Below, one piece after another: positions 57,864 to 62,929 of a stretch of 64,000 bases of DNA (its first letter is position 1; each line of letters begins with the position of its first letter). Where the stretch lies: NCBI GenBank assembly GCA_034932965.1, contig JAYFOG010000005.1:3296-67295 (forward strand), in the 5' to 3' direction. Position numbers and translations under genes: made by a program. This DNA is from Methanocorpusculum sp. (GTDB lineage Archaea > Halobacteriota > Methanomicrobia > Methanomicrobiales > Methanocorpusculaceae). Below the pieces are notes generated by a model. The model was given only the letters and a program-made list of their open reading frames with translations. It ran no database searches and was not told where the DNA came from.

Positions 57864-58352
57864 ATGCAGATTCAGATATACGGAAAAGCGGTGTTAGCCA
57901 AACCCGCCGAGCCCGTTGATGCCATAACCCCTGAACTTTTAGCCATTCTTGACGAGATGATCCCGATGCTCAAAGAACACCGCGGAGTCGGACTTGCAGC
58001 TCCGCAGGTCGGGATAGGGAAACGATTTTTTGTGATGGATCCGGGAGACAAAGTCCGCAGAGTTATCAACCCGGAGATCCTGAAAACCGGCAATGCCTTT
58101 GCGGATATGGAGGAAGGCTGTCTTTCCGTTCCCGGTATCCATAAAAAAGTCCGCCGTCCCAGAAGGATCACGGTCAGATATACGAATGAAGCCGGAGAAC
58201 TGGTCGAAGAGGAGCTCAAAGATTATCCTGCCCGGGTCTTCATGCACGAATACGATCATCTTGAGGGGATCTTGTTTGTCGATAAGATCGCACCGATAGC
58301 AAAAAAGATGATCGCAAAGCAGCTTGAGGATCTGAGCCGAAAGGAGGCGTAA
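57864..58352 (+). CDS. def: Peptide deformylase
   Basis: GVGLAAPQVG, EGCLS, HEYDHLEG motifs, all intact. Confidence 0.96.
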   Translation: MQIQIYGKAVLAKPAEPVDAITPELLAILDEMIPMLKEHRGVGLAAPQVGIGKRFFVMDPGDKVRRVINPEILKTGNAFADMEEGCLSVPGIHKKVRRPRRITVRYTNEAGELVEEELKDYPARVFMHEYDHLEGILFVDKIAPIAKKMIAKQLEDLSRKEA

Positions 58353-59282
58353 ATGCGTGTCCTTTTTATGGGGACACCGGAGTATGCCCTCCCTTCTCTT
58401 CGTGCGGTTTTTGGAGAGCATGAGATCGTCGGGATCCTGACCCGGGCAGATAAACCGAACCGGAGAGGAAATAAGATCGAGTTCTCGCCGGTGAAGATGT
58501 TCGCCCTCGAACACGGGATCCCGGTGTTTCAGCCGGAGGATATGAAGGATCCGGCTCTGTTTGAACAGCTGAAGGCTCTTTCCCCGGATATTTCGGTCGT
58601 TGTGGCATTCGGGATGATGATCCCGGATGCGATCATCGATCTCCCGAAACACAATACGATAAATCTGCACGGGTCGCTTCTGCCGAAGTACCGGGGGGCT
58701 GCTCCGATGCAGTATTCCGTTTTGAACGGGGACCCGGAGACCGGGGTCTCGATCATGTATGTGGCTTCGCGTCTGGATGCGGGTGATGTGATCCTGAGAA
58801 AATCGATCCCTCTGGGCGAAAACGAAACTTACGGCGAGGTGCATGACCGTCTGGCAGAGCTCGGGGCGGAAGCGCTTGTCGAGGCGCTTGGTCTGATCGC
58901 ATCGGGAGAGGTGACCAAAACTCCTCAGGATGAGGCGATGGTGACCGTTGCTCCGTCTATTTCGAAAGAGGAGTGTGTGATCGACTGGTCTTTGCCGGCG
59001 GCCGAGGTCCATAACAGGATCCGCGGGCTTTCCCCGATCCCCGGAGCAAACACCCGGCTTCCTGACGGCAAGCTTCTGAAGATCTACCGGTCAGAGAAGG
59101 TGCCGGGGGATTATGCCGGCGTTCCCGGGGAGATCGTCGATCTGATCAAAAAGAAGGGGCCGGTGGTGATGACGGGGAAAGGAGCGGTCTGCATACTTTC
59201 AGCAAAACCCGAAGGAAAACGCGAGATGCCGGGCTTTGAGATCGTGAACGGTCATTATCTGAATGTCGGCGACCGGCTCTGA
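58353..59282 (+). CDS. fmt: Methionyl-tRNA formyltransferase
   Basis: FMGTPE, DKPNRRG loop, INLHGSLLPKYRGAAP, LDAGD; C-terminal tRNA-binding domain present. Confidence 0.94.
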   Translation: MRVLFMGTPEYALPSLRAVFGEHEIVGILTRADKPNRRGNKIEFSPVKMFALEHGIPVFQPEDMKDPALFEQLKALSPDISVVVAFGMMIPDAIIDLPKHNTINLHGSLLPKYRGAAPMQYSVLNGDPETGVSIMYVASRLDAGDVILRKSIPLGENETYGEVHDRLAELGAEALVEALGLIASGEVTKTPQDEAMVTVAPSISKEECVIDWSLPAAEVHNRIRGLSPIPGANTRLPDGKLLKIYRSEKVPGDYAGVPGEIVDLIKKKGPVVMTGKGAVCILSAKPEGKREMPGFEIVNGHYLNVGDRL

Positions 59283-59305: not shown

Positions 59306-59530
59306 GCACTGCGTAATGCCTATGAAAAAAGAACCCCGTGTTGGGGGTATCCAGCTCGCAAGCCCGCCCCTACGGGTCGGCCCGCCTCGGCTAAGGTCGT
59401 CCGCTTTCAGCGTCCATCCCGTTCATCACACGAAAACACGAAAAAAATAATATCACTTGGGTGTCACAACTATCCCACCCTCTCCTTCCCCCACACGAAA
59501 TATGCAAAAGTCAACGAAATGCACGAAAAG
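59306..59530. repeat. Composite repeat cluster at the island boundary
   Basis: CACTGCGTAATGCCTA, nested hairpins at 59352-59394, a 28-bp motif shared with 11320, and CACGAAA units. Confidence 0.65.
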
Positions 59531-59534
59531 GGGT

Positions 59535-59592
59535 ACGGGGCAATATCAAGGCGGAGGGGAGGATCGTTTGAGCGAGCTATCCGCTGATGTAG
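59535..59592 (+). pseudogene. Diverged copy of the NCS2 permease 3' end
   Basis: 50/56 identical to 10199-10254, ending ASYPLM-stop. Confidence 0.85.
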
Positions 59593-59609
59593 GGGAGGGA
59601 TAAATGTGG

Positions 59610-60347
59610 CTAATTTTTTGGATCTATATCAACAATGATAGTTGGTACTATAAGATTATTCTCTTCAAATGTACTTTTTATGGTAATAATCTCGCAATTT
59701 AAGTTATCAACAAGTGATTTTGATATATTTATATCATCGACATAAATGATTATGTTAGGTTTATGATAAATCAAATCTTTGATATTCATGTGTGCTTTCC
59801 ATATTTCATTTGACTCATCCCCTAATTCTAATTTGATTATATCATATACGGCACTAGGACATCTTTGACGCGTAATATCACATGCATCCATCAAACGAAA
59901 TATGGCACAAATCATTCTTAGTCGAACGTTATCACATTCGTCTGGAACATCTATAAGAGAATAACTTTTCCTATGAGCTAATATTATATGCTTTAAACAA
60001 AATACGTACTTTTCAGGAAATGGGTCTAATAACTTAGATTTTTGCATGAGTTTAATTGATGCCGATGCATGGTCCTCACGACTAATAATACAACCTATAT
60101 CATGAACCCATGCGGCAAGATATAACAATAAACCTTCATCCTGATTTAATATTATACCCCACGCCCCAAGAAAGAGATTAATATTTTTATTGATAATCCT
60201 TAGAGTGTGATCAACACCATGTGATGAATATTCTGGGAGTTTCCTGGGAATGAATGTCAAAAATTGAGTTGAATAATTATCAAAAGCATCGATTAGATAT
60301 TTTGTATCTGATGAGTATTCAACAAAAATATAATTGGGGATTTCCAT
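59610..60347 (-). CDS. HD-domain phosphohydrolase (HD-CE-like)
   Basis: YSSHGVDHTLRI..AAWVHDIG..EDH..LAH..FRLMDACD metal-binding pattern. Very AT-rich. Confidence 0.8.
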   Translation of the reverse strand: MEIPNYIFVEYSSDTKYLIDAFDNYSTQFLTFIPRKLPEYSSHGVDHTLRIINKNINLFLGAWGIILNQDEGLLLYLAAWVHDIGCIISREDHASASIKLMQKSKLLDPFPEKYVFCLKHIILAHRKSYSLIDVPDECDNVRLRMICAIFRLMDACDITRQRCPSAVYDIIKLELGDESNEIWKAHMNIKDLIYHKPNIIIYVDDINISKSLVDNLNCEIITIKSTFEENNLIVPTIIVDIDPKN

Positions 60348-60372
60348 TTTAGTTCAATATTATATAAATTAT

Positions 60373-60663
60373 TTAATCTTTCCAATAATGTTCATACAGA
60401 TCTTTTATTCTGCTTATGTGCTCATTACTTATTTGGAACAGTCTTCCAGCACGTCCCGTATCAGTGGGACCATATTCCCCTCTGATGATTCCCCAATCGA
60501 AAAGTGTATCTATAGCGTTAGAGATGGTATTTTTACTTACTTTACCATCTAATCGTTCCACCAATCTAGTGAACCAAATGGATTCTCCAAGAGATTCCGC
60601 TTTGTAGATTTCACATGCCACTTTAAACTCATTTGAAAGTGGATTTTTGTGTGCTTCGGTCAA
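60373..60663 (-). CDS. Winged-helix DNA-binding protein
   Basis: FTRLVERLDGKVSKNTISNAIDTLFDWGII plus wing GRAGRLFQIS. TTG start with GAGGAG upstream. Confidence 0.75.
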   Translation of the reverse strand: MTEAHKNPLSNEFKVACEIYKAESLGESIWFTRLVERLDGKVSKNTISNAIDTLFDWGIIRGEYGPTDTGRAGRLFQISNEHISRIKDLYEHYWKD

Positions 60664-60889
60664 TCTGCTTCAACTCCTCTCTGACATTAAATATAATTTA
60701 TGATATGATAAATCTTTTTCTTTGAGACTAACTCTCAAATTTTGACTATTATAGTTATACTTTATACATCATATACTTATTCTATGATTGACTCTCATTT
60801 TATTAAGTGTATAAACCAGGGTATCTCACCAGATCCTTAAATATCAAAACGATAACATAATCATAAATTAATTAAAATGTAATTAATTC

Positions 60890-62026
60890 ATGGCAGAATC
60901 TGATGAAGATATTATTGTTGATATGAAACATTATTTTTCTGAGGCATATGCCTTAGATTTCGAGCCATATTCCAAACACGTTAATAATATACTGGATCAT
61001 TTAATCAAATCAGAGATTCTAAATTATAAAAATTCGGATGTATTAGTAATCGGTAGAAAAGGAGTGAGTCTTTTTCAACCATATATTAAGACGGTTAATA
61101 GAGAGAACAATTTACAGGGAATTTTTACTATTCAATTATTTTCCCACTCAAAACATCCCATTATAAAAATGGTACAACCTCATCGATATAGTGATTTTAA
61201 GCCACTTAAACAAATAGAACGCATAAGGAAAAGATTTTACGGGAAGGTTATATTATTAACCGACGCAATCAATTCAGGAAATGAAATATCAGAGGTCATA
61301 AAAACAATTGATCCCAAAAATATCTCTAAAATATGTGGTTATCTTGCAAATAAAGATCGTCTTTCTGAATTACAAAAAAAATATCCTCGCATACAATTTT
61401 CATTTATTAAAATAGTAAACAAAGAGGAGTATACCTTAGAACAAGATAGATTGCAACTTATATATCAGAGTCGATTGATCCCAATCGATGGGGAACACCC
61501 ATATCAGATATATTCATTAAAATATCAATTAAGCCCAGAAGATCTTGTCAATCACATGGATAATATTTTTAGTAAATTTAAATTAGCAGAGACAAATCTA
61601 AAAAAAGATGAACTACTTGTCCCAAACATCTCTAGTTATACCATTAATTTAGATTACAATATATTATGTCAGGAAAATCCAGAATTAATACAACAAGTAT
61701 ATGATATTGAAAGACTGCAAGTAAGATTTAAAATTGATCCTAAAGAATCTAAATTAAGAATAATGGCACTTGCTCTTGTAAATAATACAGATATTGATAT
61801 CAATAAGCAATGTAACATTGAATATAAAACATGTGGAATAAATATCCTCAAAAAAATGTGTGAAACGATTTCTATCCCACACCCAATGAAAGATAAACCT
61901 CAAGAAAAAATTTGTCCCCTCTGTATCGATTTAAATATTTCAAATTTCATTATTTTCTATGCTGAAAAAGAACTGTTCAAAATATTAGAATCAAATGGGG
62001 TTAAGATTGATAAAATGGAAATTTAA
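60890..62026 (+). CDS. Phosphoribosyltransferase-like protein with unknown C-terminal domain
   Basis: VLVIGRKG and GKVILLTDAINSGNEI (degenerate PRPP-binding loop); Cys-rich C-terminus (CPLC). Confidence 0.6.
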   Translation: MAESDEDIIVDMKHYFSEAYALDFEPYSKHVNNILDHLIKSEILNYKNSDVLVIGRKGVSLFQPYIKTVNRENNLQGIFTIQLFSHSKHPIIKMVQPHRYSDFKPLKQIERIRKRFYGKVILLTDAINSGNEISEVIKTIDPKNISKICGYLANKDRLSELQKKYPRIQFSFIKIVNKEEYTLEQDRLQLIYQSRLIPIDGEHPYQIYSLKYQLSPEDLVNHMDNIFSKFKLAETNLKKDELLVPNISSYTINLDYNILCQENPELIQQVYDIERLQVRFKIDPKESKLRIMALALVNNTDIDINKQCNIEYKTCGINILKKMCETISIPHPMKDKPQEKICPLCIDLNISNFIIFYAEKELFKILESNGVKIDKMEI

Positions 62027-62047: not shown

Positions 62048-62252
62048 TTAGAGTTGGTCACAAAGCCCCATCAGCTCTTCAACCCTTTCGAGGATGCGAC
62101 GTTGTTTGGCGATTCGTGGGAGGGGAGTAGCGTAATTCTTTACCTGTTTTACATCAATAGGTTTTGCAGCAATTTCTTGTTGCTCAACATTAGCGGATTT
62201 TAAAATTTTAGGGGATTTGTTAGGCTGAGCTCATCGACTCCGACGATGATAC
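62048..62252 (-). pseudogene. Type I R-M specificity subunit (hsdS) C-terminal remnant
   Basis: Manual translation ..VKNYATPLPRIAKQRRILERVEELMGLCDQL*, with an upstream out-of-frame RIIVGVDEL. No start codon. Confidence 0.7.
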
Positions 62253-62271
62253 GCCAAAATAGAACTCCGTA

Positions 62272-62293
62272 AAAAGGAGGGAAATCCCTCCCG
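62272..62293 (-). terminator. Hairpin plus T-run terminator
   Basis: Minus strand GGGAGGGATTTCCCTCC followed by TTTTT. Confidence 0.6.
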
Positions 62294-62319
62294 TAAGGAA
62301 ATATTGCTGCACTCATACA

Positions 62320-62424
62320 TTACTTCTGCCCTGTGAGAAAACCTTCGACAAGTTTCCCAAAGAGCATGATGAGAAACCCGAGGAAGAGCATGATCAATTT
62401 CCGGAGCCGGCTGGAGATCTGCAT
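62320..62424 (-). CDS. 34-aa hydrophobic peptide (not in ORF track)
   Basis: MQISSRLRKLIMLFLGFLIMLFGKLVEGFLTGQK*, preceded by GGGAGG 13 bp after the upstream stop and followed by a terminator. Confidence 0.55.
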   Translation of the reverse strand: MQISSRLRKLIMLFLGFLIMLFGKLVEGFLTGQK

Positions 62425-62437
62425 CTCCGCCCTCCCG

Positions 62438-62929
62438 TTAGTTCAGGGCCGGCTTCGTGTCTGCCCAGGCGTCCACTGCGGCGATCGTTGCGTCGTCGGC
62501 ATAGCCGGAAACGGTCATCGAATCGCGGTTGAGACTGATCTGGAAAGTATCGGTCCCGAGCTTTGCGGAAATGCGGACGTTCCAGGTCGCTTCGGTACCG
62601 ATCTCCGTGGTCTCTGCAGTCCCGCCGTTTCCGAATGCTGCTTTAAGATCCGCACTGCCGGTAAGGGCGGTGATCGCTGCGGCATATTCTGCCCGCGTGT
62701 AGGCGGTGACCTGGACCTTGCCGTTCATTGCGGAAGTGTTCGGGTCGAAGTAGCCGACATAGGTCTTGTAGGTCTGCTTCCCGAGCTCGACTTCGGTAAG
62801 GCCGAGGGGATTTGTAACACCGGTAATTTCTGCGATGATCGCATCATACGCGGCGGCGTTCGTAAATTCTGTACTGAAGATCCGCTTTGCGGACTTCGAG
62901 ATTGCTGTCTGAATGAAATCAGCTGTCAT
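62438..62929 (-). CDS. Hypothetical Ala/Thr-rich protein (Methanomicrobiales-type family)
   Basis: 163 aa, MTADFIQT..VDAWADTKPAL. Host-like codon usage; no recognised catalytic motif. Confidence 0.7.
   Translation of the reverse strand: MTADFIQTAISKSAKRIFSTEFTNAAAYDAIIAEITGVTNPLGLTEVELGKQTYKTYVGYFDPNTSAMNGKVQVTAYTRAEYAAAITALTGSADLKAAFGNGGTAETTEIGTEATWNVRISAKLGTDTFQISLNRDSMTVSGYADDATIAAVDAWADTKPALN

Follow-up and report, generated by a model that had tools for sequence, protein, structure and literature searches.

In 2023, Nicastro, Burroughs, Iyer and Aravind reportedly defined, by computational means, two families of conflict effectors (CE), HD-CE and PRTase-CE (PRTase, phosphoribosyltransferase), as nucleotide-targeting immune effectors. 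Here we compare these and other described systems with an AT-rich, self-contained, three-gene cassette of 2.4 kb that lies in a 64,000-nucleotide (nt) stretch of Methanocorpusculum sp. DNA (contig JAYFOG010000005.1, positions 3,296-67,295, assembly GCA_034932965.1), referred to as the window. The cassette encodes an HD-CE phosphohydrolase, a small winged helix-turn-helix (wHTH) protein and a PRTase-like protein. A PRTase-like domain with a fused winged helix is also found in the effector of Retron-Eco11, in which mutation of the phosphoribosyl pyrophosphate (PRPP) motif VVILTDTIGSGNQ abolishes defence and activation halves PRPP (PMC12746101). By analogy, our cassette would work like a retron type III effector pair, although it belongs neither to the retrons nor to the PRTase-CE systems. 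This conserved and mobile cassette of nucleotide enzymes has no known name and most likely serves to attack the supply of nucleotides, as an antiviral or addiction module. Its main features are as follows.

59610-60347, minus strand: HD-CE family phosphohydrolase, 245 amino acids (aa), second gene of the wHTH-HD operon
60373-60663, minus strand: PadR/Pex-like wHTH protein, 96 aa, TTG start, 25 nt upstream of the HD gene
60664-60889: divergent intergenic spacer of 226 nt, with the promoters of both transcription units inside
60721-60739: palindrome TTTGAGA-N5-TCTCAAA, candidate operator, directly upstream of the wHTH-HD TATA-like box
60890-62026, plus strand: PRTase-like protein, 378 aa, divergent from the wHTH-HD pair
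61247-61285, plus strand: PRPP-binding loop VILLTDAINSGNE, residues 120-132 of the PRTase-like protein
61832-61924, plus strand: Cys4 cluster C315, C324, C342 and C345 of the PRTase-like protein, probable zinc site

An initial annotation, made from the letters of the window, had described three intact genes with the wHTH-HD pair transcribed divergently from the 378-aa gene, and all three open reading frames (ORFs) and their arrangement around the spacer were verified. As the wHTH gene ends 25 nt upstream of HD, we assign the two to one operon. The same annotation had drawn attention to the AT-richness of the genes, which measurement bears out: GC content is 0.27-0.34 over 59.6-62.0 kb as against 0.52-0.59 in both flanks, and, of all 1-kb windows in the 1.56-Mb assembly (mean 0.511, s.d. 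0.047), the one poorest in GC (0.28) falls inside the island. The unit also holds, as had been suggested, no reverse transcriptase (RT), ATPase or nuclease, and RT was found neither in the ORFs of the island nor among the annotated genes of the other loci examined.

A PRTase fold had been proposed for the 378-aa protein, and its AlphaFold2 (AF2) model (predicted local distance difference test score, pLDDT, 77) agrees. The model has two parts, of which the first, residues ~18-200, is an N-terminal type I PRTase fold with the five-stranded parallel sheet core, PRPP loop and pyrophosphate (PPi) loop of that fold, catalysis being only predicted. Uracil phosphoribosyltransferase (UPRTase) is its best structural match (Foldseek E 5e-6, probability 1.00; VIA Z 11.9, root-mean-square deviation 3.8 over 157 residues, within residues 18-195), and the structural matches listed also include Bacillus subtilis PurR (Z 7.2) and a ppGpp-binding PRTase-fold protein (Z 8.6). 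The second part, residues ~200-378, is an alpha/beta domain with an inserted Cys4 cluster that resembles Roco COR-B/KA1 modules (VIA, Z ~10). Both motifs singled out by the initial annotation, RKG and ILLTDAINSGNE, are present and conserved across 49 family members, as is the Cys-rich tail: D125 and G130 of the PRPP loop are invariant and E132 nearly so; R56-K57-G58 of the PPi loop is conserved, with R56 nearly invariant; and C324 and C342 are invariant, with C315 and C345 at least 90% conserved. The PRPP loop carries T124-D125, in which threonine replaces the first acidic residue.

Sequence comparison places this protein in a clade that appears to lie outside every Pfam family. No Pfam family passes its cut-off for the 378-aa protein, and a distant member of its family passes Pribosyltran at 27.7 bits against a cut-off of 26.3. 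An exhaustive search recovered 66 representatives of the family. A search of PDB sequences with the family profile gave no match, nor did tblastn of the 378-aa protein against GenBank phage records and PLSDB plasmids; an ESM Atlas feature search returned nothing at 0.9 or above, and NCBIfam nothing usable.

Among described systems, retron type III-A (Retron-Eco11; PMC12746101, PMC7736814) comes with the same combination of a PRTase-fold protein and a small winged helix, the two being fused in some retron variants. The PRPP loops of both follow nearly one pattern, xILTDxIxSGNx, both occur on mobile defence DNA, and the retron effector is latent until triggered, its activation being linked to PRPP depletion. 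The cassette differs in having no reverse transcriptase, no non-coding RNA (ncRNA) and no Gx14PNNxP motif, in its archaeal hosts, and in adding a C-terminal Cys4 domain and an HD-CE partner. The PADLOC PRTase_III-A model PDLC02933 reaches E 0.021 and 12.4 bits over 37 residues of the PRTase-like protein. With RT, ncRNA, a significant match to the PRTase_III-A model and Gx14PNNxP all missing, we rejected an assignment to retron type III-A.

Membership of the PRTase-CE family (PF24390) was likewise rejected, on four grounds. The PRTase-CE hidden Markov model (HMM) gave no match to the 378-aa gene in a search of the genome, even at E up to 10; across the family only 2 of 49 members match it, weakly (best E 0.0023); when the family was compared with six archaeal PRTase-CE proteins in hhalign, the probability was 1.7%; and the aspartate pair and PNN motif, the latter a retron signature, are invariant in those six proteins when aligned (D152-D153, in LLDDF, and P268-N269-N270), whereas the PRTase-like protein carries T124-D125 and lacks PNN. 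Of 401 genomes of the phylum, seven have true PRTase-CE genes, and the trio occurs in none of those seven.

The HD protein, by contrast with the PRTase-like protein, is a bona fide member of its conflict-effector family, as the initial annotation had proposed, and the predicted logic is that of the family, a nucleotide-targeting effector in an immune system. It matches Pfam PF24391 (HD-CE) at 69.9 bits against a cut-off of 27, over profile positions 1-238 of 263, and 18 of 18 relatives carry PF24391; in PHROGs it matches a family of unknown function only. H43, H47, H82-D83, H125 and D154 are invariant in an alignment with 16 relatives, among them the metal-binding set H...HD...D (H47, H82-D83, H125, D154). 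Because its catalytic residues are all invariant, the HD enzyme looks active.

Other systems share parts of this design. In ShosTA/PsyrTA and Ophion (PMC11961720, bioRxiv 2025.09.30.679545), a PRTase again serves as a toxic or defensive enzyme of nucleotide metabolism, and Ophion pairs it with a phosphoesterase (PHP); these systems differ in the DprA-like ShosA of ShosTA, in the radical SAM and PHP proteins of Ophion, in the PRTase clade and in being bacterial. ShosTA itself was dismissed, as PADLOC gives no match to it among the three proteins. In PUA-Calcineurin-CE-HAD (PUA-Cal-HAD), two phosphoesterases act as a coupled nucleotide sink (bioRxiv 2026.01.15.699771), and there too a small sensor accompanies two cooperating nucleotide-degrading enzymes, in a preassembled system that a ligand switches on. 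Its folds are unrelated to those of the cassette, and its sensor, a PUA domain, recognizes a modified nucleotide. A PADLOC search, suggested at the outset as a check of novelty, yielded only insignificant matches of the three proteins to unrelated models (E 0.002-0.02). The claim that the system is undescribed thus holds in part: the 378-aa protein falls outside PRTase-CE and PADLOC recognizes none of the three, but HD-CE and PRTase-CE had already been defined computationally.

Structure prediction points to the wHTH as a partner of the PRTase-like protein. When the three chains were co-folded, a step that the initial annotation had recommended, the wHTH reached an ipSAE of 0.81 with the PRTase-like protein (0.80, 0.81 and 0.83 in separate runs), compared with 0.00 for each of two decoy partners and 0.00 when the PRTase-like chain was replaced. 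In calibration, 58 of 80 solved complexes and 2 of 110 mismatched pairs scored this high. The runs have at least 68% of contacts in common, with a partner pLDDT of at least 83. In the co-fold with the PRTase-like chain replaced, the pairing of wHTH with HD scored 0.00, a value that speaks neither for nor against contact.

According to these models, the wHTH probably binds the PRTase-like protein 1:1, between the PRTase and Cys4 C-terminal domains, and is predicted to cover the PRPP loop while burying its own recognition helix and wing. Modelled contacts on the enzyme side comprise N-terminal residues 8-16, residues 84-86, residues 128-131 of the PRPP loop and residues 182-202, including the invariant D200; C-terminal-domain strands and the cysteine cluster (336-347) also take part. 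On the wHTH side, contacts fall in the recognition helix (45-58), wing (61-74) and C-terminal helix and in an N-terminal segment, NPLS, that is conserved. Within the wHTH, residues of the interface are more conserved than the remainder (mean entropy 0.83 versus 1.34, p 0.007).

The wHTH is, to judge from the alignments, by far the most constrained component of the cassette and appears to evolve far more slowly than either enzyme. Identity across loci is 61-85% for the wHTH, 37-50% for HD and 30-59% for the PRTase-like protein, and at the level of 90% clusters the wHTH family has 305 matches versus 13 and 18 for the other two proteins. Its AF2 model (41-sequence alignment, pLDDT 86) has the topology H-S-H-H-hairpin-H with a single C-terminal helix, that is, the winged-helix fold and C-terminal dimerization helix of PadR-like proteins. 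The best Foldseek matches are Pex and PadR (E 9e-5 to 1e-3, TM 0.6-0.7); in Pfam there is no match to PadR and there are weak sequence matches only, so that its PadR-like membership is one of fold only. The protein thus resembles PadR/Pex regulators in fold, size and single C-terminal helix, and differs from them in the absent PadR match, in its slight acidity (isoelectric point 5.9; family median 7.8) and in the invariant hydrophobic and acidic residues of its recognition helix, L54, D56 and W57, which the model puts in the protein interface.

A role on DNA is nevertheless plausible. In an alignment of the spacer from nine loci, conservation is limited to the wHTH-proximal third, where most loci have a palindromic or near-palindromic element at the same position; at one of them (L007) the palindrome is wholly different in its letters yet still perfect. 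We infer that the palindrome at 60721-60739 is a candidate operator, and since it abuts the wHTH-HD TATA-like box and recurs across loci, a DNA-bound state of the wHTH is plausible as well. The wHTH, proposed at first to autoregulate the shared promoter, is probably more than an autoregulator, being the most constrained component and the predicted partner of the PRTase-like enzyme. Plus-strand RNA folding of the spacer gave a z of -3.7 and minus-strand folding a z of -0.3, and Rfam gave no match for the whole window, nor for the island at E up to 1. We dropped the idea of an ncRNA, retron-like or not, in the spacer, because the promoter-proximal palindrome is the only part that aligns and the long inverted repeats show no conservation at other loci. 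RNA-library contigs from groundwater are exact matches to the HD and wHTH genes, which weakly hints at transcription of the wHTH-HD operon; for the PRTase-like gene there is no contig covering most of the gene in one library (X9) and a fragment only in another (X12), and as these data are contigs, such sparse coverage says nothing about its expression.

The trio occurs in at least 20 independent loci, from Methanoregula, Methanoculleus, Methanosarcina, Methanocella, Archaeoglobus and Thermococci and from one viral contig. The usual layout, HD, small gene and divergent gene of 360-400 aa, is kept across unrelated contigs, down to 27-33% identity of the PRTase-like protein, and the small ORF is present where gene callers had missed it. 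A pattern scan of 185,579 species genomes found 18 loci, labelled Methanoregula, Methanoculleus, Methanosarcina, Methanocella, Archaeoglobus/Archaeoglobales, Thermococci, Thaumarchaeota and 'Clostridiaceae', the last being a 2-kb contig that is probably misbinned. The full trio is present in 12 of them, and another is truncated by the end of its contig; in each of 17 loci where this could be assessed, wHTH and HD are neighbours, and 13 of 15 assessable loci have the PRTase-like gene. The three genes do, then, co-occur, where the initial annotation would have abandoned its proposal had they never done so.

Widespread as it is, the cassette is also rare. The wHTH family is found in 7 of 401 species-representative genomes of the phylum (<2%): two of these have the standard trio, one a co-directional trio, one wHTH and HD only and one a distant wHTH and PRTase-like pair, and one is interrupted by a contig end. 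Of 24 other genomes of the order, one has the family, and a search of 36 further species of the host genus did not find it. At all seven loci measured, the cassette has a GC content of 0.31-0.37, with most flanks at 0.54-0.58.

Natural variants lack one enzyme or the other. Two loci (L001 and L002) agree completely from the wHTH rightwards (breakpoint 5438), with wHTH and PRTase-like proteins 100% identical, but L001 has lost HD after ~17 codons; the deletion adjoins a transposase of the IS6 family, and a PAPS-reductase gene occupies the former HD position. Loci of Methanoculleus and Methanosarcina barkeri have wHTH and HD without the PRTase-like gene. On an IMG/VR viral contig (L026:1368-5617; recovered again as L027), an HD-less pair of PRTase-like and wHTH genes adjoins a complete trio, and these tandem cassettes lie directly upstream of phage cement and major-capsid genes. 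Because variants drop either HD or the PRTase-like gene, neither enzyme seems to be needed to tolerate the other, and the wHTH would be the constant hub.

The wHTH gene also occurs in other settings. A Thermococci-labelled locus (L052:1706-2541) has two tandem wHTH genes between the PRTase-like gene and HD. Three IMG/VR viral contigs (L028:4995-5294, L029 and L030:4989-5273) carry stand-alone wHTH homologues, at 44-48% identity and with neither enzyme, one of them directly after a Mu-F-like head-morphogenesis gene; these stand-alone homologues may be decoys against the cassette.

The neighbourhood of the cassette at other loci agrees with the defence or mobile-DNA context that had been suggested for it. 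Its neighbours within a few kb include a BglII-type restriction-modification (R-M) pair, Fic and a PD-(D/E)XK-HTH gene (HTH, helix-turn-helix) at one locus, an MmeI-type enzyme and an IS6-family transposase at another, and at further loci a complete type I R-M system, PemK, and HNH and Cdc6-like genes of a mobile element. The trio often lies next to R-M genes, insertion sequences (IS) or viral genes, and toxin-antitoxin (TA) genes also occur beside it.

We give about an even chance to the following interpretation: a horizontally mobile conflict cassette of archaea and their viruses, in which the wHTH restrains the PRTase-like enzyme and release of that enzyme collapses nucleotide supply in an abortive-infection-like manner. 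At rest, the wHTH would hold the PRTase-like enzyme in check, and free wHTH dimers may also act on the palindrome to repress the wHTH-HD promoter. The PRTase-like enzyme, once freed by a trigger tied to infection or to loss of the element, would consume PRPP or cleave glycosidic bonds of nucleotides, while the HD-CE enzyme would hydrolyse nucleotide phosphates. With nucleotide supply collapsing, replication of virus and host alike would stop. The two enzymes would be parallel or sequential effectors rather than toxin and antidote. An antidote role for HD, in removing a product of the PRTase-like enzyme, had been part of the initial annotation and is disfavoured, since HD is deleted in L001 while the PRTase-like and wHTH proteins stay identical, and since wHTH and HD also occur on their own.

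Several points weigh against this interpretation. The threonine in place of the first acidic residue of the PRPP loop could, judging from this substitution, alter or abolish catalysis, and pure ligand sensors such as PurR and PyrR also use PRTase folds. The co-fold departed from the calibration set-up by its custom alignments and three chains, and interface residues of the PRTase-like protein are not more conserved than the remainder of that protein (p 0.21). Finally, we infer a defence role from gene context alone.

A bolder version is tentative, and we think it unlikely: the cassette would be an RT-free counterpart of retron type III, with a monomeric wHTH lid that comes off once its nucleic-acid-binding face encounters a viral molecule. 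The wHTH alone would then serve two independent nucleotide-destroying enzymes as sensor, inhibitor and repressor, and viruses would counter it with the stand-alone wHTH homologues (L028-L030).

The PRTase-like protein could instead be non-catalytic. In such a split PurR-like regulator it would sense PRPP, (p)ppGpp or a nucleotide and so control DNA binding by the wHTH, leaving HD-CE as the sole effector. B. subtilis PurR and the ppGpp-binding protein among the structural matches, the missing first acidic residue of the PRPP loop, the palindrome at the wHTH-HD promoter and the existence of wHTH-HD pairs without the PRTase-like gene are all in keeping with this idea, which we nonetheless hold to be improbable: the modelled complex buries the recognition helix and wing and leaves neither free for DNA, PRTase-like and wHTH pairs without HD exist on the viral contig and in L001, and the near-identical PRPP motif of Retron-Eco11 is required for defence and tied to PRPP depletion.

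That the cassette is an addiction (TA) module, which would stabilize mobile elements or proviruses and have no antiviral role, we judge quite unlikely. The labile antitoxin of one or both enzymes would be the wHTH, and a small DNA-binding protein encoded upstream of an enzyme (by 25 nt here; with a 4-nt overlap in L015) is the gene order of an antitoxin. The candidate operator, the tight binding of the wHTH to an enzyme predicted by the model, and viral or mobile carriage beside IS elements and other TA genes would suit such a module, whereas TA systems usually show the opposite of an extremely conserved antitoxin with fast-evolving toxins. As many TA systems also act in defence, the proposal is compatible with a conflict cassette that shuts down nucleotide supply. 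A self-regulated operon for housekeeping or niche nucleotide salvage, to which UPRTase as the top structural match and the activity of HD enzymes in nucleotide metabolism might point, is very improbable for a family not found in 36 congeners and present in <2% of the genomes of the phylum, with a foreign base composition at all seven loci measured, defence and mobile neighbours and carriage on a viral contig, in a host that retains ordinary PRTases elsewhere in its genome.

To our knowledge, few native defence systems of archaea, and of methanogens in particular, have been tested, and immunity by nucleotide depletion is known almost entirely from bacteria. The cassette described here recurs in records of methanogens and Archaeoglobus, in Thermococci-labelled records and on a virus-like contig, and its architecture yields a precise hypothesis, that the wHTH acts as a protein lid on a PRTase-fold enzyme. 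If this is true, the retron-type pair of PRTase and winged-helix effector proteins can work without reverse transcription, and a function would be assigned to HD-CE in its simplest context.

Two further features frame the island in the window.

59360-59605: left boundary, short dispersed repeats
62048-62230, minus strand: hsdS remnant (type I restriction specificity), without an intact ORF

Both had been noted in the initial annotation, as a repeat-rich boundary and a remnant of hsdS, and both were confirmed. Sub-segments of the left repeats occur at ~15 places in the genome and many in congeners, and the remnant is 60-65% identical to both conserved repeats of a full HsdS encoded at another locus (L015; E 7e-9 and 4e-7). 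The left repeats look like a genus-wide family of the MITE (miniature inverted-repeat transposable element) or REP (repetitive extragenic palindrome) kind. Their units measure ~60 to 155 nt, with a dozen or more copies in many same-genus genomes, and they are abundant in RNA-library contigs (depth ~250).

On the left, synteny with congeners ends at ~59297, just after fmt. The bacterial-type def-fmt pair occupies 57864-59282, and the searched part of fmt is kept in 38 of 40 genomes of the genus. An empty-site search in five congeners found that synteny does not resume within their 1.5-kb flanks. For this reason, and because only 4.3 kb of contig remain past the window, the variable region has no definable right border. 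A provirus-like edge had been proposed on that side, and a mobile-element or provirus edge is plausible, supported by a phage-type HNH endonuclease with a C-terminal HTH just beyond the window (L032:1915-2436, minus strand, equivalent to C5 67214-67735; PHROG 59, E 1e-19); the right flank also holds small HTH genes.

Contigs of four public runs join ~59420 to ~62340, positions that bracket a 2.9-kb insert with the trio and the hsdS remnant. The same junction occurs in paralogous form in the host genome (C92:36162-36269, 89% identity), and as these joints have sides of only 27-28 nt within repeats, paralogues or other organisms may be their source. Host markers show the assembly to be archaeal, as TFIIB was found in it and sigma-70 was not; the alpha subunit of methyl-coenzyme M reductase (MCR) was not found in this 85.6%-complete assembly, which allows no conclusion on methanogenesis. 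To the right of the hsdS remnant lie a small hydrophobic ORF (62320-62442, minus strand) and, upstream of it on the same strand, the gene of a 163-aa protein (62438-62929, minus strand) with no Pfam or PHROG match. Paralogues of the 163-aa protein are encoded on contigs C49, C92 and C7. The 3' end of its gene and the downstream sequence (62267-62600) reach RNA-library depths of hundreds to ~5800 in several variants, and the protein may be an abundant surface or structural protein.

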